From positions 1 to 37,749 of the forward strand of contig CBDUKN010000024.1 in NCBI GenBank assembly GCA_965367815.1: DNA of 37,749 bases, given 5' to 3'. Positions 4,773-21,948 of the stretch are shown here, piece by piece (the stretch's first letter is position 1; the number at the start of each line of letters is the position of its first letter). Made by a program: the position numbers and the translations under genes. The notes under the pieces were generated by a model. That model was given only the letters and a program-made list of their open reading frames with translations, made no database searches and had not been told where the DNA came from. Source of the DNA: an uncultured Thermoprotei archaeon (GTDB taxonomy: Archaea > Thermoproteota > Thermoprotei > Thermofilales > B15-G2).

Positions 4773-5494
4773 CTACACCTCTATTAAATCCACTAGCTCT
4801 TCGAGACTGTGTATAACCGCGTCCGGCTCTAAGCCTTTTTCATATGCAGTATTTTCTTGAGACTCACCTCTATTTAGTAGAACTCCTCGAATACCGAGCT
4901 TTTTCACTCCAGCGATATCGGCTTTATAGGAGTCACCCACCATTACAGCTTCCTCAGGCTTAGCTCCTAGAAACCTTAAGGTTTCTAGAAAAATTATGGA
5001 ATGAGGTTTAAGCCTCATGACTTTATATAAAGCCATAAGTACGTCAAAGTACTCGTGAAAGCAGAACTTTTTAACTATATACTCGAAACGCATAGTAGCA
5101 TTAGATACGATAGCAGTCTTCAGGCCTCTCTCCCTAAAATACTTTACAGTAGGAATAGCATCAGGATAGACTTTAACGAGCAAACTTCAATGTCGTAGAA
5201 GACATCAAGTATCTTTTTAACAAGATTAATAGATGGAGTAAAGCCAAGTTCTTTTAAAAGCCTCCAATATAAGTAAACTAAATCTAATTCACTTGAAGTT
5301 CTTTCAAGATTCTTTAATAACCTATCATGTATCTCCACATATTTTCTAGAAAAATCCTCTAAGCCGACTTTGAATCCAAGTGAATTCAAGTACTTTACAG
5401 TGGCTTTTAAAGCTTGTTCCCAGAATTTCTCCCAGTTCTCACCATATACTAGCGTATTATATAAATCAAAGAGCACAGCTCCTGCCTTAATCAT
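4773..5494 (-). pseudogene. HAD-superfamily hydrolase split by one frameshift (or an assembly error)
   Basis: Motif I 'FDLYNTL' lies in ORF 5144-5494. Motifs II-IV ('VSNA', 'KP', 'MVGDSYKADI') lie in ORF 4773-5183. One extra T at 5182-5184 joins them (…IEVLLVKVYPDA…). Confidence 0.8.
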
Positions 5495-5843: not shown

Positions 5844-6929
5844 CTATTTAGAAGAGAAGATTTTCTCGCAGAAACTACTATACAGTATTACCTTTTTAGC
5901 TTCAACATCTTCCAGGAAGCAGCCCCAGCCTCCTACAGTTACTTTTCCTTCATTACTTTTAACTACTATACTGTAGCTGAGCCAGTTTTCGCCTATACTA
6001 TAGTCTATTACTTCGCCTTTAATATAGGCCGGCTCTTTAGACTTAACATATGATCCCTCTATTTCAACATATACTGGGCCGAGATTATTTTTGAACAATA
6101 TGTCTACGTCCTCTACTAAACGCCAGAAGTGAGTATAGGAGAGAGGTTTGCTGAAAAGATTTAGGTTTGGACCTACATCAGTTGATGTTAGCCACAGAGC
6201 TAAGTGGAAAAAGTCGTTTATCATTCTGAGGAGGTTTTCATCCTCTACTATCATGGCGTAGCTTTCATCGAGATAAGGCATTTCGTTGCTGGTTTTTAGG
6301 TAGAAGACTACGCCTACTTCTCTGTCGATGAAGAGAGTAGATACAGCAGGTATACTTCTTACTTTAACTCTAGCGTACTTCGATAGAGTGTTTACGTAAA
6401 ATTTTGTTTTCATAGAGTCCGTCTCATAGATTACTAGCGATAAGTTTACGCCGTTTCTTCCTAGAGCACTTAGCTTCGATGAAAACTTTTTGAGCAAATA
6501 ATCAGGAGTTGCCAGCGCCAAGCTAATGGCACTCTTGTTCATAAGGTCTCTTACTCTTCGAATAATGTTATCTAATCCACTTACCACCCATAATCCTCCT
6601 TTCTCGTACTTTTCTAGAGAAAGTACTTTTCTTAAAAGCTCTTTAATTGTATTTTTTCTCTCCTCATATTTTTTGAGAAGATTTTCTAGGCTGTAGTCAG
6701 GGTCTACTATTCTGTATACTTTAGGTCTTTTGCTTTGAGACTCTATGAGACCCTTTTCTTCGAGACTTCTTAGAACACTGTATATTTTCGATAAAGGTAT
6801 TTTTGCTCTTCTAGCAATATTTGGAGCAGTAGTTTCGCGGTAGAGAGCTAGAGCTATGAATGCTCTTGCCTCGTAGTTGCTTAAACCTAGTCCCATTAGA
6901 TTCTTGATCAGCTCGTCGGCAATAGACAT
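5844..6929 (-). CDS. trmB: TrmB family sugar-sensing transcriptional regulator
   Basis: wHTH 'LGLSNYEARAFIAL...IARRAKIPLSKIYSVLRSLEEKGLI'. C-terminal sugar-binding signature 'VTVGGWGCFLEDVEA'. True start is likely ATG 6929; the extension to 7151 overlaps the upstream gene. Confidence 0.9.
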   Translation of the reverse strand: MSIADELIKNLMGLGLSNYEARAFIALALYRETTAPNIARRAKIPLSKIYSVLRSLEEKGLIESQSKRPKVYRIVDPDYSLENLLKKYEERKNTIKELLRKVLSLEKYEKGGLWVVSGLDNIIRRVRDLMNKSAISLALATPDYLLKKFSSKLSALGRNGVNLSLVIYETDSMKTKFYVNTLSKYARVKVRSIPAVSTLFIDREVGVVFYLKTSNEMPYLDESYAMIVEDENLLRMINDFFHLALWLTSTDVGPNLNLFSKPLSYTHFWRLVEDVDILFKNNLGPVYVEIEGSYVKSKEPAYIKGEVIDYSIGENWLSYSIVVKSNEGKVTVGGWGCFLEDVEAKKVILYSSFCEKIFSSK

Positions 6930-6936
6930 ATTTCTC

Positions 6937-6965
6937 TTTCCAAATATTAGAAAAATCTTAAAAAT
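6937..6965 (-). promoter_or_regulatory. trmB promoter: TATA-like TTTTTAAG followed by imperfect palindrome TTTCTAATATTTGGAAA
   Basis: Palindrome at 6937-6953 lies between the TATA-like box and the ATG. Confidence 0.35.
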
Positions 6966-6997
6966 TTTATGGGTCTTGTAGTTAAAATCGATAGCGC

Positions 6998-8956
6998 TTA
7001 GTAGGGGAACAGGAATCTGTATATTGTTCCTAGTCCTAGCACGAAGACCGCGAAGGCGTAGCCTAGGAAGACCCCTGAAGCTAGGCTTACTCCGTACTTC
7101 TCGTATACTTTTGCTCCACCTAGCTTCACTGTAATGTACTTTAGTAGCCAAGCTATGAACGCTGGGAATGCGTGTCCTTCGACTCCACCTATTGTTCCGA
7201 AGACTAGGCCTATTCCGTTAAGTGGGAACCAGTAGTACCTCATTCTCAGGAAGAAGACTATGCCTGATATAGCTAAGCCTACTAGTGCGTGAGGTATCCA
7301 TGGTGGGTCAGCTGGATACGGAGCTATAAGCGACGGATTAGTCCACCTGTCTGGCCACCACCAGCCGTCGACACTTACCGGTATTTTGCTGTAGCCTACA
7401 GCGTACCATGTGAATACTACTAGAGGACCTGCTACAATGTTTGTTAAAATTAGTGCTGATACTAGACCTTTGAATACTTGTGTTGGAGATAGACCCTTCT
7501 CTTCGCCTATTTTGTAGGCTAATAGCGAGTAGTAGAGAGGCCCGTAGGTGATAGACGATGCTGAGGCACAGATAAGGCTGTGTGCCATTAGCTGGACTTC
7601 GAAGTAGCTTCTATCTACTTCCTCGAGCCTTTTGCCTGGATAGAGTACGTGGTATGTGAGCGCCTGCAGTGTGCCCCACCAGCCGCCGCTGAAAGCGACT
7701 CCTGCTTCAGCATACTGTCTAGCCATAACTACGCTGTGTATTATTACGGCTATGAACAGCCATGCTGCAGCGTAGACTGCTGCTCCGGCTACAGCCATTA
7801 GGCCGACTGCCGCCAAGAACGTGACTGCTAGCAGTGTGTAGGAGAAAGAGTAGCCTATTTTTCCTTCGCGTATTTCTTCTACAGGGTTTCCTTTGAAAGC
7901 TTTCTTGAGTGTGTCTACGTACCACTTCCAGTTGAGGAGGAGAGGCCAGAGGAATACTCCGAGAAACATTCCTACTCCTGCTAAAGCGTGGAGCTTTAGG
8001 GGATCCTGGCGTCCTATGAGGTCGCATCTAGCGTAGCTGTCTGCTAGAGCCGGGATGCCTGAGTAGTAGCCCATAGTGTACGCTATTTGGGGCAATATTA
8101 CTAGGAAGACTAGCCACGAAATCCATGCTGTAAACAGGACGTCGAGAGGCACGATGTAGTAGAGAGCTACTTCGACGGGTGATGTCTGGAAAGTGAATAC
8201 TCCAGCGTAGTTCTGCTTTACTACTGGCGAGAACACAACCAAGTCGAAGAGCGAGGGGATGCCGTAGCGGAATGGAGGCTGGTTCCAGCCATAGATGTTG
8301 GGGAACCATGGTAGAAGCTGGTACAGTATCCACGGCAAGTACACTAGGAAGCCTATTGCTATTCCTAGGTGGAAGAGCCATGACACCTTTTCTTCTCTAC
8401 CTAGAGCGAAGTCTACGACTCTCTCGAAGATCACTGCATGGGGGTATGAGAGCTTCTCTATTTTATTCCATCTTTCTCTGAAAATACCTGCTATAGAGAA
8501 CATCATTAGCGCACAGACTATGACGAAGAAGTACCAGTAGGCGATGCTTATCGCCCAGTCTCCCCAGGGAACAGCTACTCCGCCGGCTAGCGCAGGTCTT
8601 AATACATCAGCTGGAGGAGCCCAGAGCTCCGGTAAGAGCTCGTTGTACATTTTAGGCTGAAGCAGTCTTGCTCCCAGGAACTGATTCATGAAGCACCATG
8701 GATAGAAGTAGCTGCCCATAGCGAAGGCTATTAGCAGGAATACTATCATTAGACTCAAGTGCTGCTCGCTAATGTACTCTCTTATCCAGGGGCCTATTAG
8801 TATGAAGAGGTAGAGCAGGCCTAAGATGAGAGTAGTGCCGCTGATCGCGTCTAAGTGGAAGCCGAAGAGCAGACCTATGAAGGCTACTTCGTATGCAAAC
8901 AGCACTGTTATTGAGAGAGCTAATAAGAGTAGTATTACCCAGACTCTACTCCTCAT
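6998..8956 (-). CDS. OPT-like polytopic membrane protein (DUF6785/DUF6784-like)
   Basis: Many hydrophobic segments. 'FRERWNKIEKLSYP' motif. C-terminal 'RYYWFPLNGIG...FIAWLLKYITVKLGG.KVY' typical of this family as I recall it. Confidence 0.75.
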   Translation of the reverse strand: MRSRVWVILLLLALSITVLFAYEVAFIGLLFGFHLDAISGTTLILGLLYLFILIGPWIREYISEQHLSLMIVFLLIAFAMGSYFYPWCFMNQFLGARLLQPKMYNELLPELWAPPADVLRPALAGGVAVPWGDWAISIAYWYFFVIVCALMMFSIAGIFRERWNKIEKLSYPHAVIFERVVDFALGREEKVSWLFHLGIAIGFLVYLPWILYQLLPWFPNIYGWNQPPFRYGIPSLFDLVVFSPVVKQNYAGVFTFQTSPVEVALYYIVPLDVLFTAWISWLVFLVILPQIAYTMGYYSGIPALADSYARCDLIGRQDPLKLHALAGVGMFLGVFLWPLLLNWKWYVDTLKKAFKGNPVEEIREGKIGYSFSYTLLAVTFLAAVGLMAVAGAAVYAAAWLFIAVIIHSVVMARQYAEAGVAFSGGWWGTLQALTYHVLYPGKRLEEVDRSYFEVQLMAHSLICASASSITYGPLYYSLLAYKIGEEKGLSPTQVFKGLVSALILTNIVAGPLVVFTWYAVGYSKIPVSVDGWWWPDRWTNPSLIAPYPADPPWIPHALVGLAISGIVFFLRMRYYWFPLNGIGLVFGTIGGVEGHAFPAFIAWLLKYITVKLGGAKVYEKYGVSLASGVFLGYAFAVFVLGLGTIYRFLFPY

Positions 8957-10496
8957 GTTTCCTCACCCTCTTCTTACGGTAAGCACGTCCTCTTCCAGCA
9001 ACATATCCTACCACAAAAATCACTGCGAGAAGAACTGCTACAAGTATACGTGTACGATACACTGTCAGCTCTAGTTTCTCTTTTGTAGACCTCAGACTCG
9101 CTATTTGCTTAGACATATTTTCTATTTTCTTTTCGAGCTCTGTTACAGCGCTCTGCAGCTCGAATATTTCCTTCATCTTAGCGAGCTCTCCTGGAAGGCT
9201 TGATATTTTCTCTGCCGGCTTAACAATAATCGTAGGCGATACAGCAAAGTACTCACGGTAGACTTTCTCGGCGTATTCTACTGGATTATTTGTAATGTTT
9301 TCATCGAATACTGCTATTATCGACTTGTACGGGAAACTCATAGCTGTGTAGTAGGTGTGAATACCTTCGTCGTCGAAGCTCCAGAGCACCGAGTCTAGTC
9401 CTAGTGTCGGGAATATGAAGACAAAGCCTTTCTTCATAGACGGGTCTGTTGATATGTACCAGCCTTCTTTAATGAGAGAAACAGGGACTTTGACGTCTTC
9501 TCTGCGAGAAAAGTTTCCAGCACCGCTCACTATGACTAGCTTGTATAGTCCTCCTTTGCCGACTCCTCCCCACTCTCTGTTAGCTAAGTTTACTTCAAGA
9601 AACATTCCGGGCTTAGCGTTCTTCCCTGTTATATCTAAGTAGGCGTAAATCCATGTCTGGTTTACGTAAAGTATGTACGTGAATACAGGGTATACGTCTG
9701 TCAAATTGTAGTAGGAAGCTGTTAAAACTACTTTAATTATTCCTCTCACAGGGCCTTCCTTCATGAAGACTACTTTTCCTCCACCAGTCATGGCGTCGGG
9801 GTTGTGCTCTATCCAGCCGGGGTCAGCTGGACAGAAGAGTCTGCTCCACTTCCATAAGAGGCTCATGTACTCTGAGCTCTGCTTAACTATATCGTATCCC
9901 GTCTTGTTTACCACTATAGAGAATATTGCTCCAGACATCCAGGCCGCTTTAACTGCTACAGTAGCCGTAATTAAGCCATTTGACAGGTCGTAGGCCTCGC
10001 TCATGAACTCGGGAGACTCCTTTTTTATTCTCGATATAAGGCCGTATTCTTTTACTCTGACTTTAATAGGGAAAGATACTTTAGGGAGCTTGCTCACTTT
10101 CTTGGCTACGAATACTTTATACTCGTTGCTTTGACCTGCTGGAATAGGCTTGACTGTGAGGAATACTAGCTCGTCTTCTTCCGAGAAGCCGTTAAGATCT
10201 AAGTCGTCTATCTGGCTTGGAATAACGTGGTCTCCGTGGAGCACGGCTGCAGTATTCCAGTCAATATCGTCTTCCTCAGTTTTAGTCACGCCGAACACGT
10301 CTACTTCTCCTTTAGGCAACGCTGCAGCCAGAGTCTTGAGCTCAACTACTATAGGGTAATTAGCCGGAATGCTGTGAGTGCTAGGTGCTTTAACTACAAT
10401 AGTTATCAAATAATATTCGTTAACAGGCTCAGAGTGCACGAGGACAATAGAGAAGAAGAGTATAGTAAATAAAATAAAAGCGCTTAATTTTTCCAT
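8946..10496 (-). CDS. Surface protein: signal peptide, DUF4861-like beta-rich domain, coiled coil, C-terminal TM anchor (paralog A)
   Basis: Hydrophobic N-terminus; 'IPSQIDDLDLNG..EEDELVF'; 'EGPVR'; heptad stretch; TM followed by a basic tail. Confidence 0.65.
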   Translation of the reverse strand: MEKLSAFILFTILFFSIVLVHSEPVNEYYLITIVVKAPSTHSIPANYPIVVELKTLAAALPKGEVDVFGVTKTEEDDIDWNTAAVLHGDHVIPSQIDDLDLNGFSEEDELVFLTVKPIPAGQSNEYKVFVAKKVSKLPKVSFPIKVRVKEYGLISRIKKESPEFMSEAYDLSNGLITATVAVKAAWMSGAIFSIVVNKTGYDIVKQSSEYMSLLWKWSRLFCPADPGWIEHNPDAMTGGGKVVFMKEGPVRGIIKVVLTASYYNLTDVYPVFTYILYVNQTWIYAYLDITGKNAKPGMFLEVNLANREWGGVGKGGLYKLVIVSGAGNFSRREDVKVPVSLIKEGWYISTDPSMKKGFVFIFPTLGLDSVLWSFDDEGIHTYYTAMSFPYKSIIAVFDENITNNPVEYAEKVYREYFAVSPTIIVKPAEKISSLPGELAKMKEIFELQSAVTELEKKIENMSKQIASLRSTKEKLELTVYRTRILVAVLLAVIFVVGYVAGRGRAYRKKRVRKHEE

Positions 10497-10518
10497 AGTT
10501 TCTTCACCGAGCTTTAGT

Positions 10519-12072
10519 TTACTTAGACTCCTTTTTCTTTCTAGCGCCTACAAAGTATCCTATAGCCAGACCTACTACTAGACCTACTACTAGGAGTACT
10601 CCTTGCATTGACTGAGCTGTACTTAGGCTGGACTTCAGGCTGCTTATCTCAGACTCTAGTTCACTTATCTTGCTCTTGTAGCCGCTTATCTCCTGGTTTA
10701 AGCTCTCTATAGTTGACTGTGCCTGCGCTAGCTGCGACTTGAGGTTCTTTATTTCATTGTTTAGTGAGCTTATTTCGCTCTTTAGAGATTCAATTTCTTT
10801 CTGAGCACCCTCAAGGACTACGACTGGTAGGAGCTTTGCTTCCTCTTCTTTAACAACCTCTACTTTAATGTCGGCAGTAGAGTAGCTGTAGACAGTACGT
10901 ATGTATGCGAACGAGTCGTTTGCCACGCTCTTGTCGAATAGTACTAGTATTCTGTAGAATGGTATAGGTATACCTTCCTCGTAGTGTAGTACTATTTCTG
11001 CTCCGGGGCTGCCCCACTCTAGTTTAATTAAGTTTCCGAGAGGATAGAATATTACAGCGAAGCCTTCTAGCTTTTCTTTATTGTATACAGCAATCCATGT
11101 TTCAGTGAGGTTTTCTTTTCTGAGGCTAGTACCCTGCATTCTAGAAAGCTCTCCTACTCCAGGAACATATACTGTGTCGTGGTTTGTTCCCTGATCAGCT
11201 AAGTCGATGAAGCTGGCTTTTACTGGTACTTTAGTGCCGGGCTTGTATCCAGGACCTGTTACTGTGAGCTCTAACTTCACGTAGCTCCAGCCTTTGTAGA
11301 CAGAGTACTTCTTTACAGCATATACGTCTGCTAGCTGTCCGTGAGGTGTTGTTGACTGTAGGACTACTACTGCTCTCACAGGACCTGTGCTCATGTAGAG
11401 TACTTTGAATCTTGGGTTCTTCTCAGCCCATCCTGGGTCTCCTTCAGCTAGATATCGTGACCATCTCCATCCAGTTGAGCCCTTCTCTCTACCCTGTTTA
11501 ACTACATCGTATCCCGTCTTCTTTATTATAGCTGAGAACACTGTTCCTGCAATCCAGTCAGACTCGTTTAGAATAACTACTTTAATTAAGTCGTTTTCTA
11601 GAACTATGCCGGTGCCTAGCTCGGCCATGTCTTCGTATTTAGGTACTATTGTTACTTTACATACTTCTTCATATGTAGGTGCAGGTAGCTTGTAGCCTTT
11701 CTCTGCTACTAGTATCTTGTATGTAACAGAGCCTCCTGCTGGGATGTCTTCTACTAGTTCAAAAGCTATTTCGTAGTCGTCTTCGCTTGTACCAAGCTTG
11801 TCTACCTGTGAAGGTACTAGAGTATCTCCGTAGAGTACGTAGACAGTGCTCCAGTCATAGGATCGTGTTACTGCTGCTTTCAAGTCTTTAACTTTGATTA
11901 CTACTGGTGTTCCGGCCTTAAGCTCTACTGGAGTAGTTATTTTGACATATATGTAGTAGTAGTGCGCTTTCGGAGAAGCATTAAGCGGAAGAATTAGTGT
12001 CAACGCCAGTAGGACTAGTGGTAATAGAAGCAGTTTCTTTCTTACCACCTTTAGGTGGTTAATTTGTTGCAT
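10519..12072 (-). CDS. Surface protein, paralog B (same architecture, longer coiled coil)
   Basis: 'VPSQVD....DDYEIAF', 'KTGYDVVKQ', 'WRWSR...DPGW..NP' and 'GPVR' are shared with paralog A. About 60-aa heptad stalk, then TM and RKKK. Confidence 0.65.
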   Translation of the reverse strand: MQQINHLKVVRKKLLLLPLVLLALTLILPLNASPKAHYYYIYVKITTPVELKAGTPVVIKVKDLKAAVTRSYDWSTVYVLYGDTLVPSQVDKLGTSEDDYEIAFELVEDIPAGGSVTYKILVAEKGYKLPAPTYEEVCKVTIVPKYEDMAELGTGIVLENDLIKVVILNESDWIAGTVFSAIIKKTGYDVVKQGREKGSTGWRWSRYLAEGDPGWAEKNPRFKVLYMSTGPVRAVVVLQSTTPHGQLADVYAVKKYSVYKGWSYVKLELTVTGPGYKPGTKVPVKASFIDLADQGTNHDTVYVPGVGELSRMQGTSLRKENLTETWIAVYNKEKLEGFAVIFYPLGNLIKLEWGSPGAEIVLHYEEGIPIPFYRILVLFDKSVANDSFAYIRTVYSYSTADIKVEVVKEEEAKLLPVVVLEGAQKEIESLKSEISSLNNEIKNLKSQLAQAQSTIESLNQEISGYKSKISELESEISSLKSSLSTAQSMQGVLLVVGLVVGLAIGYFVGARKKKESK

Positions 12073-12462: not shown

Positions 12463-14307
12463 TTAGTAGGGTAGAAGCCATATAGATTTACTTACTAGTT
12501 TTACTACAGTCAGTAGGAGTCTTAGTGAAGTGTCTCCCACTAGGAAGCCCATTACCATGTAGGCTGAGACTTTAGACCAGTTTTCTCTGAAGTGTTTAGC
12601 TATAAAGTAGTTGCCTACAAGAGAGCCTATGAACTGCGCTATAATGAAGCTTGGAGGCTGAATAATTCCTGTGACGAGAACTACTGGTATCCATGCTTTA
12701 TGCAGAATGAAGTCGCTTACTAAGTATATTGCTGTTCCTGCAACTAGTCCCGCCAGAATATTTTGTTCTCTAAATAAGTACCCTGTCCAAAGCCATTTCT
12801 GGAATCTCCAGAACTCTATTGCTTCTACAGGCCATCCTGTAACAGTATAGGGGTAGGCGCTTGAAGGTATTGGAGCAACGCTCCAGAGCAGAGAGACGTA
12901 GAAGAAGCTCATAATGAAGCCTAGGGTTATTACCAGGAAGTATGCTTTAATGTAGTCTGATAGCCTGCACTTGAGTATCTCGGCCATTTTAAGATGCTGT
13001 GCTACAGTGGAGCCTCCTGTGTAGACTTGAATTGGAGCGAAGAAAGCTTTAGGGTCTCTGTATCCACTGAAGTAGATTACTATTTCCTTGAGGTAGGGGA
13101 CATCGAACCCTATAGTTACACCCGCCGCGTATGTCTGGAGCATTGTTACTATAAAGGACCACGCTACTACTAGGAGGAGTAAAATCCATAGAGGAAAGCC
13201 TGGCACGAATATGTACACCATGATTACTGAGGCTGTAGACGCTATTAGGTACATGAGAAGATAAAACGACCCTTTTGCTCCACCTGATACTCCTTTCATT
13301 AACTTGAATGCTTTAAGTAGATTCTTGTACCTGAAAATCATTGGTGCTACAGCTGACGCTATGCCTAAGCCTATAGCTACGCTGAGCCAGAAGTATATCT
13401 GAGACTTCTGGTAAATCCACAGCCACGAAAAGCCCGGCCTCCACTTAGCTTCGAGAGGCCACAGGTCCTTCAGCGTGATAATATGGTTTCCTACAATATA
13501 TGCGGCGGCCATACCTACGAGCTGGGCTAAAGTTACTTCGACGGGGAGTATTAGTCCTAAGACGTATTGGCTTAAGTCAGTTGGTATTAGTAGAAGTGCT
13601 CCGGGGAAAACACTGTCTGCTATTGGAGTCAAGTCTACTGGCTGGCGTGTTGGCAGAATTACGCCCAGCATGTAGGGTATAATGTCGACTAGGAAGCAGT
13701 ATAGGAGGCCTGCTACTATTGCTAGCAGAAATATTCTGAGTTCAGCTGATCTTTTCTCAGCTATAACATCTATTACTGTGGCTTGGCTTGAAGCCCAGGG
13801 GAATTCGAGCTTATATGTTACTCCGTACAGGTTGTATGCAAAAAGTCCTAGTGAGAGGTTCGCTACAGCGCTAAGTATTACTGAAAAAGCTAGCACTAGA
13901 AGTGGGGTAGCCCAAGCTGGATCGAGGAAAGTTCTAAGCTGCATTACTCTAAGCGCATCGCTTCCCACGGGAGCGTAGAACGGCGGCACTAGCTTAGAAA
14001 CGCCGAGCATTATTGCTATTTCGCTGTTAGCGAAGTAGAGTCTCTTAATTAAATCTACTGCAAACCACGTCGATGTCCAGAGGCCTATCCACTCAAACGT
14101 CATGATGATGAATATCTCTTGTTTCCTAAGTCTGAGGCCGAAAATTCCCGATAGCTCGACCCAGAGCAGAAGTATTATCCACACTGAGAGAGGCATTATT
14201 TCTCCCATAACGAGGTAGTAGTAGATTATAGCTGGCTCTAGAAGCAGTACTGCGAAGAATAGGGCTATAATAGATCTCCAGGTTAAACCTTTCTCGTACT
14301 CATTCAT
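12463..14307 (-). CDS. OPT/YSL-like polytopic membrane protein
   Basis: 'KGLTWRSIIAL' N-terminal motif, 'KLEFPWA', many TM segments. ATG overlaps the stop of the upstream 1464-aa gene (ATGA). Confidence 0.75.
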   Translation of the reverse strand: MNEYEKGLTWRSIIALFFAVLLLEPAIIYYYLVMGEIMPLSVWIILLLWVELSGIFGLRLRKQEIFIIMTFEWIGLWTSTWFAVDLIKRLYFANSEIAIMLGVSKLVPPFYAPVGSDALRVMQLRTFLDPAWATPLLVLAFSVILSAVANLSLGLFAYNLYGVTYKLEFPWASSQATVIDVIAEKRSAELRIFLLAIVAGLLYCFLVDIIPYMLGVILPTRQPVDLTPIADSVFPGALLLIPTDLSQYVLGLILPVEVTLAQLVGMAAAYIVGNHIITLKDLWPLEAKWRPGFSWLWIYQKSQIYFWLSVAIGLGIASAVAPMIFRYKNLLKAFKLMKGVSGGAKGSFYLLMYLIASTASVIMVYIFVPGFPLWILLLLVVAWSFIVTMLQTYAAGVTIGFDVPYLKEIVIYFSGYRDPKAFFAPIQVYTGGSTVAQHLKMAEILKCRLSDYIKAYFLVITLGFIMSFFYVSLLWSVAPIPSSAYPYTVTGWPVEAIEFWRFQKWLWTGYLFREQNILAGLVAGTAIYLVSDFILHKAWIPVVLVTGIIQPPSFIIAQFIGSLVGNYFIAKHFRENWSKVSAYMVMGFLVGDTSLRLLLTVVKLVSKSIWLLPY

Positions 14308-17300
14308 AATTCACCACCTTTAAAGCGGGATAAACCTCTCTCAATATACTCTCTCTTAGACTTATCCGACAGGAATCTCCAGGCCAGAAACTGCTTTCTC
14401 AGCTCCCTGAAGAAGGCTGTATTCGAGGAAATCCAGGGTATTTCGGGTCCAGTCTCCTTCACGGCTACCACTTCGAATCCATATGTAGCGCCTACTTTTG
14501 TAGCCACTATAATTGTTTTCTGCACTATTCCCTGGTCAAAAGGCGCTAGCCTTACTTTAGTCTCGAGTACTTTGACTGGTCTTCCTCCTTCTTCGCGCTC
14601 ATAGTACTTGAAGTCTCCCTCTACGAAGAAGAGGCCCATGCGTTCAACTGAGTGTGCCTCTAAGTACTCTCTTACGAACTCGAGTACACCGTATACTTCT
14701 TTCTCGTTTGCTCTGAACGGCAGAGGTAAAGACCATACGTTGTCTCTTGGCTTAGTTTCTATTTTCCACTTTCTCTCAAAAGACGGTGTAATCAGTGTTG
14801 ATGCCTTGTACGCGGGATATGCTGCTGAAAGTAGAGTAAAGAATACTGTAACTACTACAACTAGTATAACTGCTGCTGAAGCATAGTTAGGGTAGAAGTT
14901 AGGTGGATAAGCTTTTATCGACCAGAGGAACGATACTCCCGCCATTCCTACAACATAGCCTATTACACTTCCCACTATAGAGAATATTAGTGCCTCTGCG
15001 AGAAACATGCCCATGACGTGTACTGGCGCTAGTCCCACTGCGCTATATACTTTGACTTCTCTTACTCTCTCGTATATCGAGTTAAGCATTGTTAAGAGCA
15101 CCGTGAAACCTACGATTAGTAGAGGAACTATAACAGTGCTCAAGCCTCCGACTACTACTTGGACTCTCGGAGCTATTCTCAGAGCTGTTTTCTCTTCCGG
15201 TAGGCCTACGTAGATGTCTACGAGAAATCTCTTAGCCATGGCTTGAGCCAGCTTGTTCAACTCGGCGTCAGATAATTTTTCCTTGGGAATAATGCTTACT
15301 GCGAGTGGCTGGGCGTTAAATGCCTTTAAAGCTAAGCTGACCGGAATAATTACTACGTCGCTTCCCGAGAGCCTTCGCGATACTTCGCTTAAGCCCTGCT
15401 CTATGTCTATCGGCGTTATTGGCTGCTGGTCTAAGTCTACTACTCCGCTGCTTCCTGACCAGAAGTACTTTCCTTCAATAATTCCCTTTACTGTTAGATC
15501 AAGTCCCCATAGGTTAATTCTGCTTCCTAAGCCTACTTTTCTGCCGAGGCTTTCTGAAAGAGCTTCAGCTGTTTTCGCGCTAATAACACAGCAGTACTCT
15601 TCGTCTTCCTGGAAGGCGACGACTTGAGGTGGCAGATTTTCTAGTTCGAGGACTTTGAATAATGCGGGGCTTATAGCTACGGCTCCCTTTATGCTAGCAT
15701 GAGGAGATGCGTTCCACTCGCATATGAACTGGTAGCCTGGAGGATAGATCCAGGAGCGGGGAGCTACAGTAAAGTTGTCGCCTAGCAGAAGCTCCATTTC
15801 TACAATGAATTCTTCTGGTATAGGCTGATTGATCATCCAGGGCGCTCTCTCTATCAGTATTCCCTCGTAGGGTGCTTTCCCGACTTTAATTACATTAATT
15901 AAAATACCTGAAGTAACAGAGGTGAACGCTGTTAAAGCGAGAACAGAGCATATTATTGAAATTAGAGTAAGGACTGTTCTCAGCTTTCTTTTCCTCAAGT
16001 TGCGGGCTCCAGTAGAAAACGCTGTCACTAATAGGCTTAGTCGCTCTACTTCAATAAAGTGTTTTCCTATAGTGTACTCCCTGAACTTCTTCATCTGAGA
16101 GTATGTTTCGCCCAGCAGCATAGCTACAAGCACTAGTACGAGAATACCTATGCTCGCAGAGATAGCCAGTACATACACGTTAATGGTCACATGGAAGCCT
16201 GGGTGGAAAATAGACAGTACTCCAATTGTCACTAAGTATGTTGTGACAGTCAAGAGGACTCTTTTTACTCCTTCTGACATAAATACTAGGCGCTCAAAGC
16301 TTATTGCGAAGAGAGCTGAAAAGAACATGAAGAAGAGTGTTGTGAGGACTATATCGTTCATCTGGCTCATAGCTGCAGTATAGACTCCTCTCGAGTAAGC
16401 CCACAGGGAGAAAGAGCAAGCGTACTGCTGTGTAGGATTCTCCGCAAAGGACTTTTTCGCGGTTTCCTCCATTAAGGAGTAGTACTCGCAGAGTCTAGCT
16501 GATACAGCGCTTTTTTCAACAAGTATTTTTGCTCTACTAACAGCCAAAAAGTACATGTCTCGGGCGTAGTCTAGCGGCGAAGCTATGTACTCCTCGCCTT
16601 CGCGGAGAATAAATCCGTTTCCTGCAAGGTTTTCGGGAGACGCATTATTTAGTACTATTAGAGGATAGGGGTCGTCTGTCCGCACTACTATTTCTACAGG
16701 TACGTTTGGCTCCACAAAAGCAGCTATGTCTTGGAGCGCTGTCGGCGTGTAGGTCTTGGTCATCAGCGTAGAAGGCGGAGGAGCTATATTGTCTCTATGT
16801 ATTAGCGGTGTGTGAGAAAGAAAGTTTAGGACATCTACTGCCTTGAAGTTTATTTGCAGAGTCTGGGGGTCTAGAGGCTGCAGCAGAATTATTGTAGCTG
16901 TCTTAAAGACTGGTACAAGCTTGTAGGCCCGAGAAACCGTTAAGACAAGTGTTCTAGGCAAACCGTAGACACCGGTATCTGTCGCGTAGAGAACTTTGCC
17001 GTGGTTGTCGAGCACGTAGCCTTGAACATCTACTGTCGAGAACGGCTTTAGTCCCTTAACTACAGCTAAGCCTCTGCTGTCAGGCTTTACTACTAGCAGA
17101 AATCCTTTGGCAGCCCACTTAGCGTTTGAAGGAGTATTCGTAGCACTAATACATATTACTGCTCTAGGGTCACTGAAGTTATTGTACCAGGCTGTCTCTA
17201 CGTTGTACTCTGCTAGCTGAACAGATAGTGTGACGTAGCCCCAGTCTCCGTAAAGCCTAGTTGGAGTCAGTGCGTAGGGAATTTCCATGTTCACATACCT

Positions 17301-18698
17301 ATATAGGACTGTCCACAGGTACTTTGCTTGCTTGAAGAAGTTCCTGAGATTTAGTCTATCGAAAGTATCTAGTGGTGTCTGCTGGTAGAGCCTTAGAGTA
17401 TTTGTTGTGACAAAAGCTATTCCTCCACCGAAGGTAGCTGCTGTAAAAGGCTCGCTATCTAAGTAGAGGTAAGGCGGGTCTACTGGTTTAGCTAGCTTAA
17501 TCCACGGCGGGTACGAGAAAGTAATCAAGTCCGCTACGCGAAAATCTTCTTTCCAGAGACTTTTAGCTTCACTAAGCCACTCTCCGAAAAACCTTGTTGA
17601 AACCCATGAGTACTTCTGATTGACTAGAGACTCGGGGTTAATGTATCCGTAGCCTAAGCCCAGCGCATAAAGCCCTAGAATATCGCTGTCCGATGAAAGA
17701 TCTATGCTCGCGAAGCCTTTAATGTATACCCCTATCTCATCGAAATGCCTTTCAACAAACTCTCTAGCACCCCATAAGTACTGGTAGTGTCCTGCTAAAG
17801 CGACAATCCAGACTGTTCTCCTGGGCTTAACTATAGTGAGGGCTCTAGCATACTCCAAGAGAAATGCTATGCCTAGAGAATCTGTAGCGCCTGGAGCTTT
17901 CCCTAGAACAGGTGACCACGAGTCATAATGTGATGCAAGAACCATTACTTCTCCTCGATAGAGAGGATCCGTGCCTTCTATTACTCCCACTATGTTGTAT
18001 GCTTCAACATTTTTCCACTCTACTTTACAGTAAACCCATATTTTGGCGTAGCCATCTCTCTTGATAATCTTCATTAATTGGAGTCCGTCGCTGTAGCTTA
18101 CGTAGAGTCGGGGGAAGTAGAGGGGAACGTTGAGTGATTTAAGCATCCCTTCAGAGTAGCTTGTGCCAATAGGCTCTATGAAAACAACTCCTTTAGCACC
18201 TAAAATACAGAGTATTTTCCATAGGAAGCGAGTATTATAGTCTAGTAGGACAAACTTCCCTCTGATGTCTACTTTCTTTAAGTCGCTGAGGCTACTTATT
18301 CTAACTAAAGTGTCTCCATCCGCAGAACTGTCATAGGAACATGTACAAACATGATTAGGCCAGAGAGGATATGCTTTAATTTTAACAAGAGACTTATTTT
18401 CCCGAACAAGTATATACGAGTACTCTACAACGGGAACTGTTACATTAAATTTCTCTACACGAACCTCAAGCCCATAGCTCCTAAGAGTCCGCTCAATATA
18501 CTTAGCTGCCTCATAGAAACCTTCGTACCCTGTCATTTTGGATTCAAGCGATGAAAGAAACATTATGTGCTTAACAAAAGCTTCCTCACTAAGCAAATTC
18601 TTCAGTTCTGTTAAGTCGTTCTGAGGAGTTGCTGAAATGAGCATAGAGGAGGCTATGAGAGTAAGTAAAAGCGCCGCGAGTAGACGTCCTGTCTTCAT
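14304..18698 (-). CDS. 1464-aa fusion: signal peptide, PA/M28 peptidase-like ectodomain, TM block, MacB/FtsX-type permease, C-terminal soluble domain
   Basis: 'AYNIVGVIEG', 'LASHYDS', 'PGATDSLGIA'; 'RNLRKRKLRTVLTLISI' (MacB-type TM1); 'NSIYERVREVKVYSAVG....VMGMFLAEA' and 'LSAAYPAYKAS' (FtsX). Confidence 0.85.
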   Translation of the reverse strand: MKTGRLLAALLLTLIASSMLISATPQNDLTELKNLLSEEAFVKHIMFLSSLESKMTGYEGFYEAAKYIERTLRSYGLEVRVEKFNVTVPVVEYSYILVRENKSLVKIKAYPLWPNHVCTCSYDSSADGDTLVRISSLSDLKKVDIRGKFVLLDYNTRFLWKILCILGAKGVVFIEPIGTSYSEGMLKSLNVPLYFPRLYVSYSDGLQLMKIIKRDGYAKIWVYCKVEWKNVEAYNIVGVIEGTDPLYRGEVMVLASHYDSWSPVLGKAPGATDSLGIAFLLEYARALTIVKPRRTVWIVALAGHYQYLWGAREFVERHFDEIGVYIKGFASIDLSSDSDILGLYALGLGYGYINPESLVNQKYSWVSTRFFGEWLSEAKSLWKEDFRVADLITFSYPPWIKLAKPVDPPYLYLDSEPFTAATFGGGIAFVTTNTLRLYQQTPLDTFDRLNLRNFFKQAKYLWTVLYRYVNMEIPYALTPTRLYGDWGYVTLSVQLAEYNVETAWYNNFSDPRAVICISATNTPSNAKWAAKGFLLVVKPDSRGLAVVKGLKPFSTVDVQGYVLDNHGKVLYATDTGVYGLPRTLVLTVSRAYKLVPVFKTATIILLQPLDPQTLQINFKAVDVLNFLSHTPLIHRDNIAPPPSTLMTKTYTPTALQDIAAFVEPNVPVEIVVRTDDPYPLIVLNNASPENLAGNGFILREGEEYIASPLDYARDMYFLAVSRAKILVEKSAVSARLCEYYSLMEETAKKSFAENPTQQYACSFSLWAYSRGVYTAAMSQMNDIVLTTLFFMFFSALFAISFERLVFMSEGVKRVLLTVTTYLVTIGVLSIFHPGFHVTINVYVLAISASIGILVLVLVAMLLGETYSQMKKFREYTIGKHFIEVERLSLLVTAFSTGARNLRKRKLRTVLTLISIICSVLALTAFTSVTSGILINVIKVGKAPYEGILIERAPWMINQPIPEEFIVEMELLLGDNFTVAPRSWIYPPGYQFICEWNASPHASIKGAVAISPALFKVLELENLPPQVVAFQEDEEYCCVISAKTAEALSESLGRKVGLGSRINLWGLDLTVKGIIEGKYFWSGSSGVVDLDQQPITPIDIEQGLSEVSRRLSGSDVVIIPVSLALKAFNAQPLAVSIIPKEKLSDAELNKLAQAMAKRFLVDIYVGLPEEKTALRIAPRVQVVVGGLSTVIVPLLIVGFTVLLTMLNSIYERVREVKVYSAVGLAPVHVMGMFLAEALIFSIVGSVIGYVVGMAGVSFLWSIKAYPPNFYPNYASAAVILVVVVTVFFTLLSAAYPAYKASTLITPSFERKWKIETKPRDNVWSLPLPFRANEKEVYGVLEFVREYLEAHSVERMGLFFVEGDFKYYEREEGGRPVKVLETKVRLAPFDQGIVQKTIIVATKVGATYGFEVVAVKETGPEIPWISSNTAFFRELRKQFLAWRFLSDKSKREYIERGLSRFKGGEL

Positions 18699-18843: not shown

Positions 18844-19917
18844 GTGATGTCTTTGTCTGGCCTCGTTTACATAGATTCATGCGCCAAGAAAATAAACGAG
18901 TATAGACGTCCGCAGACAAACGACATATTTAAAAGAAGGTGTATGATCCCGCCCCATAAAATACTTCTCACTAATTTGGCTGAAATAAAGCCTATTTCCG
19001 CATTTAACCCCGGTATGCTTCTAGAAAACGGTGTGCTTGAAGTATATGCCAGAGTAATAGTAGGATACTTCGAGTACGCAAGTATGATAGCGAAGATAGA
19101 GTTACCTCTAAACTCGCTGGAGGAAGGTGTTTTCTCTAGAGAAATAGACGCAAAAGTAGTAGTAGGCCCTGATACATGGCTTGATATATGGGGTGCTGAA
19201 GACCCTAGAGTATTCTACTTAGAGAAAAACAAAGTAATGGTATATACTGGCAAAACGGAGAAGTTTTATGAAAGCAGCTACAATAAAACAGTTCCAGTAA
19301 TCGCAGTCTACGACAAGTCTGCCAATAGGTGGACTAAGGTATCTTATGTAGCTGTGCCGCATCCTCTCGATAAACTGGTTACATTTAATAAAGACACATT
19401 CCTCGTCAAAATGCTCGGCGACGAAAAAATACATGTTTTCCACAGACCTGTAATAGCAAACTTCCCTACTTCTCTCTGGTATGGAACATCCAGCAAAGAA
19501 ATTTCCGCCGAGTCTAAGAGCATAGACCCCCTAGTCGTAGAAGACAATAGGATCGTTATGCTTCCATCTGAATTCGAGTACAATATAGGGTGGAGTGCTC
19601 CTCTCCTCGAAGTAGACGGCAAGTATATTGAAATAGCGCATGCTCAGTGCAGCGACTGCTACTACAGGCTCTACGCCCTCGAGCTAGAGTACAGTGAAGA
19701 CAAGGGCTTCGAGATCACAGGTGTTTCTGAGACATATATCATGGAGCCTAAAGAACTATACGAAAAATATGGAGACCGCCCCTGCGTAGTTTTTGCATGT
19801 GGAGCCTGTATTGTAAAAGACAAAGTTATAGTATCATATGGCGCGGGAGACTACTTTATAGGGCTAGCTGAAACAGATCTCTCGACTCTACTCAGCTCAA
19901 TAAAGAGAATCAAGTAG
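18844..19917 (+). CDS. GH130 family beta-mannoside phosphorylase/glycosidase (5-bladed propeller)
   Basis: 'AFNPG', 'Y.R', 'GAEDPRV', 'NKD', 'FHRP', 'YEKYGDRPCVVFACG', 'SYGAGD'. No signal peptide. Confidence 0.85.
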   Translation: MMSLSGLVYIDSCAKKINEYRRPQTNDIFKRRCMIPPHKILLTNLAEIKPISAFNPGMLLENGVLEVYARVIVGYFEYASMIAKIELPLNSLEEGVFSREIDAKVVVGPDTWLDIWGAEDPRVFYLEKNKVMVYTGKTEKFYESSYNKTVPVIAVYDKSANRWTKVSYVAVPHPLDKLVTFNKDTFLVKMLGDEKIHVFHRPVIANFPTSLWYGTSSKEISAESKSIDPLVVEDNRIVMLPSEFEYNIGWSAPLLEVDGKYIEIAHAQCSDCYYRLYALELEYSEDKGFEITGVSETYIMEPKELYEKYGDRPCVVFACGACIVKDKVIVSYGAGDYFIGLAETDLSTLLSSIKRIK

Positions 19918-19929
19918 ACGAGTGAGACC

Positions 19930-21948
19930 GTGGCCGAAGGAAAGCGAGGTTTAAACCTTATCTTAATAGGCGCCGTAGTAGTAATAATGGCTTTAGTCGC
20001 TTTATCTTTACTCAACGTCTGGAAGCCGCCCAGTCCAGAACACGTAGAAAAGCCTACAGAAACTGGCGAAGTACTAGCCAAAGTTTCTGCAAACAATATT
20101 GTTTTAGAAGTACGCAAATATTCTTCCGACAAAGACTTCACTAAAGTATCTCTAGTAGCCTACTACAGTGAGAAACAAGACTACTGTCTTGAAGTAAAAG
20201 GTCTCGGTGGAGAAGACTACGAGTTCTTCTCCTACGCTAAAAGCGTTTCAGTCGAAGAAAAAGACGACAAAATAGTAGTATTGATTTCAGGTGAAAAAGA
20301 GAACTACTGGAACTATACTGCAGAAATAACGCTTTACAAAAACTACCCTGGCTTCGCTGAAGTAGAAATAAAAGTCACTCTCAAGGGATCGAGTCTGCGT
20401 GGAGGAAGAGGAGCATTCTACGCGACTAACGGCAAAGGCCAGCTAGCGTCAACAGTATATGGCGGAGAAGCTGGATGGCACTACCCCTTGGTTTCAGTCA
20501 CTTACATCAAGTACCCAATAGTAGTCTTAATGAAAGATTCCACTGGAAAATACTTGTTCTCAGTAAGCTACTGTGATTTAACTGGAAAAGGCAGTATCTA
20601 TGACAGAAAGCTAGCTGAGTACAGCTTCGAGATGTCACGCGACGCTTTTGGACTTAAGTCGCCTTACCTCAACGGACTTAAAGGAACATACATAGCCGCA
20701 AAATACTATCTCTACGTATGGAGAAATGAAAAAGATCCCTTAAGAGGAGTACTCAGTTTCCTAGACATTATAGCTAGTAAAATTAAAGAAAAGAACTATG
20801 ATTTAAGCAAAAACAAAGTCTATATAACAAACATGATTTCAACGCTACAAAATCCACCAGACTTAAAAGATATTTATATGATTCAAGGAGACCTATATCT
20901 ACTTAAAGCGTATGTAGGAGATAAGAGAAAATATGTCTCTGAAAGCGAGTTTATTACTCAGGCAAATGTTTTACTCGGATTGACGTACCTGTACAATAAG
21001 ACTCAGGCTCCCGAGTACAAAAACCTCATATTAAATATTCTTAGGAATACAAGTTACTTTGACGTATACTATGATAAGCTACGAGGAATCTACAGCAATA
21101 ACTGGATGAGCGCTGGAAGAATGGATTCATGGTACCAGATAACGAACCCAAGTATGCTCCTTGCAGCACACTCCCTTGCTCCCGATTTAGTTAAAATAGA
21201 TTTAGTTAAAATGAAGAAAAACGCAAACTGGCTGATTAACTTCGCTAGGAAAGTAAAGTACTCGTTCCCAGTATTCGTTTACCCTGACTACACTATACAG
21301 GAGCCCGGTAAAGAAGCGGACGCCGCCTTAGGGTACTCCTACCTAATGGTTAAACTATACTTGCTTACAGGAAACAAGACTTACCTCGAGGAAGCTTCGG
21401 CGAGCCTAGAGCACTACTTGACAGTAGACTACAGTAAGCTCTATGAAGCACACTTAGCTCCCATGGGAGTGGCTGCAGCAGCTCACTTATACGCGATTAC
21501 AGGTGACAGCAAGTACCTCGACTACCTCTATAAGCTAGAGTACCTGTGCTTAAAGTGGATTAACCTATACCGAGGCAACGTAATAGAAGAAGAAGTACCC
21601 TTTACCCTCGTCTCAGCTATGCCTAACATATACTCAGCAGCCTTTGAGTACGGGCTCTTTAAGTATTTCCTCGAAGAAGCATATCTAGTTCTAAAGAAAC
21701 ACGAAAAGAACCCTGTAGCACCGCTGTACAGATTCTACTCAATTTCAGTCGCTATTACATCAAAATACGCTTTCCCAAAGCTACTTGGAATAAGCTACAG
21801 GAACTTAGGCTACGGCAAAATAGATGAAAAATGCTGGGTTCCAGTAGAAGACATCTACCCGCTACAAAAAGCCTTCCCTGGGCAAATACCTCAAGAAATA
21901 TATGGCTTTGGCTCGCAGATAATAGCGCTGTACTGCGAAGACCCCTAG
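19930..21948 (+). CDS. Membrane-anchored protein, N-terminal beta domain + C-terminal (alpha/alpha)-barrel; putative glycoside-active enzyme
   Basis: N-terminal TM. Repeated 'LYxxTGxxxYL' helix-turn motifs (LYNKTQAPEYK, LYLLTGNKTYL, LYAITGDSKYL). Acidic motifs DSWY, EAD, YEA, FEY, VED, QEIYG. Confidence 0.6.
   Translation: MAEGKRGLNLILIGAVVVIMALVALSLLNVWKPPSPEHVEKPTETGEVLAKVSANNIVLEVRKYSSDKDFTKVSLVAYYSEKQDYCLEVKGLGGEDYEFFSYAKSVSVEEKDDKIVVLISGEKENYWNYTAEITLYKNYPGFAEVEIKVTLKGSSLRGGRGAFYATNGKGQLASTVYGGEAGWHYPLVSVTYIKYPIVVLMKDSTGKYLFSVSYCDLTGKGSIYDRKLAEYSFEMSRDAFGLKSPYLNGLKGTYIAAKYYLYVWRNEKDPLRGVLSFLDIIASKIKEKNYDLSKNKVYITNMISTLQNPPDLKDIYMIQGDLYLLKAYVGDKRKYVSESEFITQANVLLGLTYLYNKTQAPEYKNLILNILRNTSYFDVYYDKLRGIYSNNWMSAGRMDSWYQITNPSMLLAAHSLAPDLVKIDLVKMKKNANWLINFARKVKYSFPVFVYPDYTIQEPGKEADAALGYSYLMVKLYLLTGNKTYLEEASASLEHYLTVDYSKLYEAHLAPMGVAAAAHLYAITGDSKYLDYLYKLEYLCLKWINLYRGNVIEEEVPFTLVSAMPNIYSAAFEYGLFKYFLEEAYLVLKKHEKNPVAPLYRFYSISVAITSKYAFPKLLGISYRNLGYGKIDEKCWVPVEDIYPLQKAFPGQIPQEIYGFGSQIIALYCEDP

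Follow-up and report, generated by a model that had tools for sequence, protein, structure and literature searches.

What does a domain of the M28 peptidase fold do when it has lost the catalytic glutamates of its family and is fused to a membrane permease? The question is raised by a gene on a contig of 37,749 nucleotides (CBDUKN010000024.1 of assembly GCA_965367815.1; the window, meaning the whole stretch of DNA that was analysed) from an uncultured archaeon of the Thermoprotei. A preliminary description, made from the sequence alone, placed an M28-like ectodomain lacking the catalytic EE pair at 17290-18600 and took it to be a binding domain. This range corresponds to residues 33-470, the M28/PA head of a 1464-residue protein (the giant), which the list of open reading frames (ORFs) and the translation show to be encoded by a single intact minus-strand ORF. 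Three Pfam domains were identified in it, namely Peptidase_M28 (residues 235-323), MacB_PCD (residues 908-1096) and FtsX (residues 1190-1299). Comparisons of the head with solved structures and with its relatives indicate that it is very probably not a canonical M28 peptidase, and that its cleft appears to have been remodelled and kept under constraint. The gene and the features of its head are:

14304..18698, minus strand: whole gene, fusion of an M28/PA head with an FtsX/MacB-type permease, 1464 residues
18630..18698, minus strand: predicted N-terminal signal peptide or signal anchor, residues 1-23 (hydrophobic residues 3-25; model helix at residues 4-21, pLDDT about 67)
17265..18629, minus strand: predicted M28-fold head, residues 24-478 (AF2 model, Foldseek and VIA)
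18024-18383, minus strand: PA-like insert, part of the M28-fold head, at about residues 106-225
17919..17933, minus strand: SHYDS, residues 256-260, with the site-1 His257 and Asp259
17880..17891, minus strand: GATD, residues 270-273, with the site-2 (bridging) Asp273
17769..17795, minus strand: AGHYQYLWG, residues 302-310, with His304 at the position of the general-base Glu and Tyr305 at that of the site-3 Glu
17700..17702, minus strand: Asp333, the site-4 Asp, kept
17445..17462, minus strand: LDSEPF, with Ser415 at the position of the site-5 His

The remodelled cleft of the head

The motif coordinates were confirmed by translating 17445-17933 on the minus strand. The giant keeps SHYDS (HxD) and GATD, and AGHYQYLWG stands in place of the M28 motif GEExGLxG; both points had been made in the preliminary description, which set the latter motif at about 17770-17796 where the real coordinates are 17769-17795. 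The Pfam match to Peptidase_M28 (PF04389; E-value 4.8e-11, 43.2 bits against a cut-off of 21.3) covers only positions 1-87 of the 193 in the profile. A phmmer search of residues 1-520 against the chains of the PDB gave the PA-domain aminopeptidase 2ek8 as the top match (E-value 3.5e-7), and a family profile built from 52 members matched the same protein at 5.3e-35. In the phmmer alignment SHYDS lies on SHHDS, 'KAPGATD' on 'KAPGAND', 'sIDLss' on 'qLDMvg' and 'alaGHYQYLWGareF' on 'tfgaEENGLIGskkY', with His304 and Tyr305 sitting on both glutamates.

In PMC7522609 the M28 metal sites are numbered by the residues of 1amp as 1 (His97), 2 (Asp117), 3 (Glu152), 4 (Asp179) and 5 (His256), Zn1 being held by sites 2, 3 and 5 and Zn2 by sites 1, 2 and 4; sites 2 and 3 are there called the strongest binders for Zn1, and the single-zinc M28 structures in its Table 1, which are glutaminyl cyclases, use sites 2, 3 and 5. 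Sites 1, 2 and 4 are present in the giant as His257, Asp273 and Asp333. The general-base glutamate (Glu151 of 1amp) is replaced by His304 and the site-3 glutamate by Tyr305. The site-5 histidine is replaced by Ser415, one ligand loss beyond those in the preliminary description; in this case 'FdSepF' of the family profile aligns with 'SDHESF' of 2ek8, in a weak second stretch of the alignment (5.2 bits) that is backed by the motif position. Altogether, the changes affect three of the six catalytic positions (base Glu, site-3 Glu and site-5 His). With neither site 3 nor site 5 in place and the base glutamate replaced, the canonical co-catalytic M28 zinc pair is predicted to be unable to form in this head.

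An AF2 model of residues 1-780, built with 52 aligned relatives, has a mean pLDDT of 93.1 and a pTM of 0.90. When the head model was compared with the PDB by Foldseek, the top match was again 2ek8 (E-value 2.1e-24), and the other matches listed include Pseudomonas PaAP, transferrin receptor 1 (TfR1), 3iib, BSAP and GCPII/III. With VIA-align the best Z-scores were for BSAP (29.1; 374 residues aligned, root-mean-square deviation (rmsd) 5.8) and 1amp (28.8; 267 of 291 residues, rmsd 2.5 Å), followed by the E151H mutant 2anp (28.7), GCPII (28.1), 2ek8 (27.9), TfR1 (about 27) and glutaminyl cyclases (26.8). In the model His257 ends the strand 251-257, Asp273 starts the helix 271-289, His304 and Tyr305 lie just past the strand 295-301 and Asp333 ends the strand 326-333; the changed residues would sit where the M28 topology places its ligands. 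By profile matches and predicted model alike, the head belongs to M28 both as a fold and as a homologous family, and the kinship is not a chance likeness.

Its nearest relatives are the PA-domain M28 aminopeptidases (2ek8 from Aneurinibacillus AM-1; BSAP/YwaD, 6hc6, from Bacillus subtilis; PaAP, 8ac9, from Pseudomonas) and the prototype Aeromonas/Vibrio aminopeptidase 1amp, which have the same alpha/beta fold, PA-like insert and motif order. The HxD aspartate and the ligands at sites 1, 2 and 4 are likewise common to these enzymes and the giant. Unlike these enzymes, the giant has His, Tyr and Ser at the base position, site 3 and site 5, is fused to a polytopic permease and belongs to a family in which the ligand set is degenerate. 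A histidine at the base position is also found in 2anp, the E151H mutant of the Aeromonas proteolytica aminopeptidase, but in the mutant the five zinc ligands are all intact, and the giant has lost sites 3 and 5.

The preliminary description likened the head to the inactive M28-fold proteins nicalin and nicastrin. The comparison is a fair one in so far as TfR1, nicalin, nicastrin and GPAA1 are, like the predicted head, M28 or M28/PA folds attached to membranes, with lost or altered zinc sites, which serve as receptors or as subunits of complexes, and profile matches link the head to TfR1 (E-value 2.1e-12) and nicalin (4.5e-9). All four, however, are eukaryotic and occur as single-pass proteins or separate subunits, whereas the head is archaeal, fused to an FtsX permease and closer to active bacterial aminopeptidases. 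The Foldseek comparison of a predicted model that had been proposed did find the M28 fold, but with an active aminopeptidase at the top, and nicastrin was absent among the best 50 matches of both the Foldseek and the VIA lists. What the head has in common with subunits of the nicastrin/nicalin type is an M28-like fold that has lost the zinc ligand set; its best listed matches in sequence and fold are active PA-M28 aminopeptidases, and it is not built as a separate single-pass subunit like those of gamma-secretase or the BOS complex. We know of no case in which the old active site of TfR1, nicalin, nicastrin or GPAA1 was replaced by a new near-invariant His/Asp set.

A homologue search with residues 1-520 returned 120 proteins, including an exact copy of the query, with lengths of 1030-2011 residues (nearly all 1400-1800). 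Both the M28 and the FtsX families are carried by about 113 of these, and the named hosts are Bathyarchaeia, Thermofilaceae, Desulfurococcaceae, Thermosphaera, Ignisphaera, Baldrarchaeia, Hodarchaeales, Latescibacterota and Planctomycetes. A census of residues was taken from the alignment of the 120 sequences (the query and 119 matches):

Site 1 (His257 in the giant): Y 91, H 25, F 3, R 1
Asp259: D 120
Site 2 (Asp273): D 74, E 24, other 22
General-base position (His304): H 118, Y 1, F 1; Glu 0
Site 3 (Tyr305): Y 65, W 21, F 16, H 8, N 6, other 4; D or E 0
Site 4 (Asp333): D 105
Site 5 (Ser415): S 60, A 37, other 23; His 0

None of the 120 members has an EE pair within eight columns of the AGHYQYLWG position, and a full M28 ligand set or a ligand-capable triad of sites 2, 3 and 5 is found in none either. 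Ligand-capable residues at sites 1, 2 and 4 are all kept in 14, the giant included. Positions 414 and 416 are acidic in 113 and 112 members, respectively, and the near-invariance of His304 and Asp259 extends to the bacterial members. The retained HxD histidine and GATD aspartate, to which the preliminary description had drawn attention, are thus real in the giant's own copy but do not hold as a trait of the family, in which 91 members have Tyr at site 1 and 22 have a residue other than Asp or Glu at site 2. The view that the head is not a canonical M28 peptidase is borne out by the three changed positions and by the lack of an EE pair or a site 2/3/5 triad in every relative. A complete binuclear zinc site with an alternative base, which that description had named as the finding that would speak against its view, was not seen in the residue alignment.

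The mean pairwise column identity is 0.32-0.35 in the M28 parts, 0.37 in the PA-like insert (the highest region) and 0.37 in FtsX transmembrane helices (TM) 2-4, with values of 0.25 for the MacB core domain and 0.26 for the beta domains. Since the head equals the FtsX core in identity, and Asp259 and His304 are near-invariant, the old active site appears to be a remodelled pocket under constraint and not a relic. To judge from the alignment, the conserved set of the new cleft consists of Asp259, His304, an aromatic residue at 305 and Asp333. A pseudogene or relic was ruled out by the intact 1464-residue frame and by head conservation equal to that of the membrane core.

In the source genome the EE pair is absent from all eight paralogues with an M28-type head, six of which keep the histidine, while a stand-alone M28 protein of 421 residues retains AEE. 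The latter (G000:C18 31285-32550, minus strand) is without a signal peptide and keeps HYDS and the bridging Asp as well as AEE; one pairwise MAFFT alignment has 'SSDG' where 'SDH' is expected.

The permease part and a candidate motor

The remaining parts of the giant, all on the minus strand, are:

16359..17264, minus strand: beta-rich domains (residues 479-705) and three-helix stalk (706-780), together residues 479-780, joining the head to the membrane (DSSP of the model)
16089..16358, minus strand: predicted three-TM bundle, residues 781-870 (hydropathy and model helices)
14769..16088, minus strand: predicted type VII ATP-binding cassette (ABC) permease module, residues 871-1310 (amphipathic helix, TM1, MacB-type extracytoplasmic core domain, TM2-4 including the loop ER..E(I/V)...VGL..H)
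14307..14768, minus strand: predicted cytoplasmic C-terminal alpha/beta domain, residues 1311-1464 (154 residues), with strands and helices in the model; conserved

According to both profile and model comparisons, the membrane part is a permease of the MacB/FtsX type (type VII ABC). The Pfam matches are to FtsX (PF02687, E-value 6.3e-15) and MacB_PCD (PF12704, 7.8e-7, 30 bits against a cut-off of 27), and the profile matches of the module in the PDB are YtrF (5.9e-16), MacB (6e-16) and LolC (1.4e-15). An AF2 model of residues 771-1464 (pLDDT 88.1, pTM 0.71) was matched by VIA to HrtB (Z 13.8), FtsX (13.5), MacB (13.0), YtrF (12.8), the MacB periplasmic domain (12.6), LolC (11.1), YbbP (9.4) and BceB (9.2). 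In the type VII ABC class the cytoplasmic loop between TM2 and TM3 faces the ATPase. This loop has near-invariant E, R, E, G and P columns in the giant family (giant ERVREVKVYSAVGLAPVH; family consensus ERxREI...VGLSPxH), and by analogy it would face an ATPase here too.

The known systems of this class (MacB, LolCDE, FtsEX-EnvC, YtrEF, HrtBA, BceAB and YbbAP) have in common with the giant FtsX TM2-4, the MacB-type core domain between TM1 and TM2, and the TM2-TM3 loop. They use cytoplasmic ATP hydrolysis to move a domain outside, the nearest example being FtsEX with its hydrolase activator. The giant differs from them in having no adjacent ATPase gene, an extra ectodomain of 780 residues, a three-TM bundle in front and a C-terminal domain that is not an ATPase, as well as a constant OPT-like partner; and its many paralogues would have to share one candidate motor.

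Internal duplication of FtsX is not supported, the three-TM bundle matching FtsX TM2-4 with an hhalign probability of only 0.4%. The C-terminal domain was rejected as an ATPase: at 154 residues it is without an ABC_tran match, no Pfam family matches it, and its fold matches (helix-grip, AHSA1, KA1 and TBP-like), at Z of about 8, are at noise level. It has near-invariant W, R, Q, W and R columns and is located where an ATPase would dock. For the beta domains and stalk (residues 479-780) no family or fold match was found, in fold searches that barely tested this part.

The genome has 59 ABC_tran (PF00005) matches, of which none adjoins a giant gene, and the 37.7-kb window contains no such match. 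Four small FtsX genes do have an adjoining ATPase gene, among them a unit on contig C9 (63012-64375; L002:749-2112, minus strand) in which a 212-residue mini-FtsX without an ectodomain is followed by a 240-residue MacB-type ATPase. An orphan ATPase of the same subtype is encoded on contig C4 (10332-11063, plus strand; E-value 1.2e-116 to the C9 ATPase). Of the 120 genomes surveyed in the window's class, 27 carry the mini-FtsX, none of them more than once, and the ATPase follows it in 10 of 12 loci, the other two lying at contig ends. Giant and mini-FtsX occur together in 26 of these genomes, which are related and so not independent observations; five have the giant only (completeness 69-99%), one the mini-FtsX only and 88 neither. 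The unit is also found, away from the giant genes, in both of the bacterial genomes that have several giants each, and the ATPases of these bacterial units match the archaeal one at E-values of 2e-111 and 2e-106, beyond the other MacB-type ATPases of its own genome (about 1e-71). This ATPase subtype is thus conserved between archaea and Latescibacterota.

A complex of giant residues 771-1315 with the mini-FtsX was predicted in the class 'weak support', with a score of 0.47 where the best of three controls reached 0.00; since solved LolC/LolE and MacB dimers are similar, the pass may reflect that likeness. Of 157 solved complexes 116 reach the pass mark, as do 2 of 215 mismatched pairs; passes with scores of 0.60 or less comprise only 18 of the solved complexes, together with both of the passing mismatches. 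At least 95% of the contacts are shared between runs, and the partner has a pLDDT of at least 71. The co-occurrence is no more than suggestive, and the mini-FtsX/ATPase unit is a candidate motor that all giants might share.

The OPT-like partner and the surrounding genes

FtsX is matched 18 times in the source genome (2.45 Mb, 99.4% complete). Eight ORFs match both the M28-type head and FtsX, and six more large FtsX proteins (601-1312 residues) match the FtsX part only, giving 14 large ones in all. The six carry other ectodomains, and some stand in tandem with M28-type modules (C7 57961-73739 and C3 116339-133777). The loci of the giant family (L011-L022) are spread over contigs C1, C3, C5, C7, C12 and C20.

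An OPT-like gene lies beside six of the eight M28-type paralogues, with DUF6785-type genes nearby. The giant family is present in 31 of the 120 genomes of the class, and in a survey of 30 archaeal loci, our own included (1.5-kb flanks), an OPT-like gene adjoins the giant in 23; one locus has a DUF6785-type gene only, and six have neither, five of these on short or cut contigs. Relatives of the DUF6785-type gene lie beside seven of the 30, and no ABC ATPase gene is adjacent to a giant in any of them. Four bacterial loci (three from Latescibacterota and one from Gemmatimonadota; 10-kb flanks) all have an OPT-like gene directly downstream, two have a DUF6785-type gene upstream and none has an ATPase or mini-FtsX gene within 10 kb. 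Giants are paired with OPT-like permease genes in two domains of life.

The preliminary description had further supposed that the ectodomain replaces a solute-binding protein (SBP). This fits poorly, the permease being of the MacB/FtsX type and the constant partner an OPT-like secondary-transporter gene; to our knowledge the type VII class does not work with SBPs. Pfam scans of the ORFs in the window found no importer-type permease, ATPase or SBP family, nor any other transporter family. The idea is apt only loosely, as a functional analogy, in that a built-in receptor would stand in a cluster that has no SBP.

The genes around the giant in the window are as follows.

12463..14307, minus strand: 614-residue OPT-like polytopic permease (Pfam OPT E-value 0.0023, below the cut-off), overlapping the giant gene by 4 bases
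8946..12072, minus strand: two paralogous surface proteins of 516 and 517 residues, each with a signal peptide, a DUF4861-like beta domain, a coiled coil and a C-terminal TM
6998..8956, minus strand: 652-residue DUF6785/DUF6784 polytopic membrane protein, second permease of the module (Pfam E-values 3e-22 and 1.1e-8)
5844..7151, minus strand: sugar-type regulator of the TrmB family at the end of the block (Pfam TrmB 6.8e-21, Regulator_TrmB 4.5e-43)
18844-19917, plus strand: GH130 phosphorylase (Pfam GH130 2.5e-69), divergent from the giant
19930-21948, plus strand: membrane-anchored 672-residue protein with an N-terminal TM helix and a sub-threshold GH76 match only
21949-23307, plus strand: phosphomanno/glucomutase (PGM_PMM domains)

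Further divergent genes encode a PfkB kinase and a fucose-isomerase-like protein. The block of giant, OPT-like permease, 517-residue protein, 516-residue protein, DUF6785 protein and TrmB regulator recurs with very strong matches in G027 and G022, which represent two other families within the same taxonomic order. In G027 relatives of the GH130 and 672-residue proteins adjoin the giant, and in G022 the upstream side ends at the contig end. The relative of the 672-residue protein in G027 is an open frame of 876 residues between GH130 and the giant; the protein itself may be an extracellular glycanase of the cluster.

The surface proteins, encoded at 8946-12072 between the OPT-like and DUF6785 genes, have a type-I arrangement with a coiled-coil stalk and a basic tail after the TM; Pfam DUF4861 matches them at 21.4 bits (under the cut-off of 22.3) and 26.0 bits (over it). 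The TrmB ORF is listed with a TTG start and shares about 150 bases with the DUF6785 gene, while its helix-turn-helix match starts at residue 86; the true start is probably further in, the stop-to-stop frames of the orthologues being 384 and 360 residues (L075 and L077). Two overlapping ORFs of 116 and 136 residues at 4773-5494 (minus strand) match the N- and C-terminal halves of Pfam Hydrolase; this split HAD-family hydrolase may be due to a frameshift or an assembly error. Near the contig end lie genes for Cas6 (31424-32335, plus strand), a DUF3782/PD-(D/E)XK protein (32332-33096, minus strand) and a HepT-like/nucleotidyltransferase pair (34119-34938, minus strand).

The neighbourhoods of the other paralogues were scanned over 80 ORFs at five further modules, 74 ORFs (L017-L022) being left out. 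Most encode housekeeping proteins, such as reverse gyrase, CysRS, IMPDH, GMP synthase and spermidine synthases, and only a few are possibly related to sugars (BNR, C5-epimerase/pectate-lyase-like and GFO/IDH/MocA proteins). A general link of the whole family to sugars was rejected on this ground.

A proposed mechanism and its alternatives

The reading that we prefer, at a probability of roughly one half for the mechanism as a whole, is that the head is a ligand-handling domain and not a peptidase, driven by a motor in trans and serving import through the OPT-like permease. The remodelled M28/PA cleft would bind or hold an extracellular ligand while riding on a mechanical permease of the MacB/FtsX (type VII ABC) type. 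ATP-driven movement of the stalk and core domain, powered in trans by the single-copy mini-FtsX and ATPase unit on another contig, would load or release the head, and the ligand would then pass to the co-encoded OPT-like and DUF6785 permeases for import. A mannose-containing oligosaccharide or glycopeptide is the probable ligand of this copy, because the conserved block ends in a TrmB-type regulator, contains no further transporter and stands beside genes for GH130 and phosphomannomutase.

Several observations weigh against this scheme. The type VII ABC systems known to us are exporters, extractors or hydrolase regulators, and not importers. The link to the ATPase consists of co-occurrence among related genomes and the low complex score, and the two surface proteins could themselves be the glycan binders of the cluster. 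Since the neighbours of the other modules are mostly housekeeping genes, the sugar reading holds for this orthologue group only. With sites 1, 2 and 4 kept, moreover, the giant could hold one metal at the Zn2 position, and a near-invariant His304 at the base position together with the invariant Asp259 could mark catalysis instead of binding; 2anp is described, in its entry title, as a 'functional' E151H mutant of the Aeromonas enzyme.

This last group of observations leads to the alternative that the head has kept enzymatic activity, as a hydrolase of altered chemistry with His304 as the base and either one Zn2-type metal (on His257, Asp273 and Asp333) or a metal-free His/Asp centre, which would trim substrates outside the cell before uptake. 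The chief argument for residual or new chemistry is the histidine at the base position. It is kept in 118 of the 120 sequences, alongside Asp259 (120), Asp333 (105) and the acidic residues at 414 and 416 (113 and 112), in a head as conserved as the membrane core; the mutant 2anp matches the head model at Z 28.7, and GPAA1 has been modelled as an M28-type enzyme with unusual ligands, among them Tyr at site 5 (PMC7522609). We nevertheless regard an active hydrolase as unlikely. Site 3 is never acidic and site 5 never His in the 120, a metal triad is not a family feature (site 1 is Tyr or Phe in 94, site 2 is neither Asp nor Glu in 22, and only 14 keep sites 1, 2 and 4), and the histidine is itself lost in two paralogues of the same genome; the single-zinc M28 structures in Table 1 of PMC7522609, moreover, use sites 2, 3 and 5.

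The head might also have no specific ligand and act, in the manner of nicastrin or nicalin, as a scaffold, spacer or steric gate that positions the OPT-like permeases or envelope partners or limits access to them. An M28 fold with lost ligands, as in TfR1 and nicalin, the constant adjacency of genes for polytopic partners, and the long beta domains and helical stalk that separate the head from the membrane would all suit such a role, but a mere spacer should not keep a near-invariant His/Asp pair, nor have the PA insert as its most conserved region (0.37), and we consider it rather improbable; it is non-catalytic, as is the ligand-handling head that we prefer, and the evidence does not separate the two. 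An equally doubtful alternative is that the system works outwards, like LolCDE, FtsEX-EnvC or MacB, to extract, release or remodel surface proteins or the envelope, with the head as an adaptor that holds the client and the OPT-like proteins in another role. Consistent with this are the fold matches of the permease to HrtB, FtsX, MacB, YtrF and LolC (Z 11-14), the two C-terminally anchored surface proteins conserved in the block and the multi-copy nature of the family, the 2.45-Mb genome encoding 14 large FtsX proteins. The surface-protein genes, however, are confined to this orthologue group and do not occur in the other paralogous modules, it is an OPT-like transporter gene that constantly accompanies the giant, and a sugar-type regulator with adjoining catabolic enzymes suits uptake.

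No published description of an M28-FtsX fusion or of DUF6785 was found in the literature searched, whose coverage did not extend to subscription journals. Eukaryotic receptors and membrane complexes already provide examples of pseudo-enzymes with the M28 fold; in the present case such a fold occurs in a widespread, multi-copy and unstudied prokaryotic family, where the lost zinc site appears to have been replaced by a new, almost invariant set of residues. Should the head instead prove to be an enzyme, it would represent M28 chemistry without the canonical zinc pair. If a receptor head on a MacB-type motor does feed OPT-like permeases, it would constitute a new route for the uptake of oligomers in hyperthermophilic archaea and a new job for the type VII ABC machinery. 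More tentatively, the giants may form an undescribed class of nutrient-capture machine in archaea and some bacteria, in which one shared mini-FtsX/ATPase motor would serve many heads of different specificity. These remodelled M28/PA heads, with their invariant His/Asp cleft, would grab or slowly process extracellular oligomers and pass them to OPT-fold permeases, a hybrid of primary-active mechanics and secondary transport that would replace SBP-dependent importers and be tuned in this copy to mannose-containing glycans or glycopeptides.

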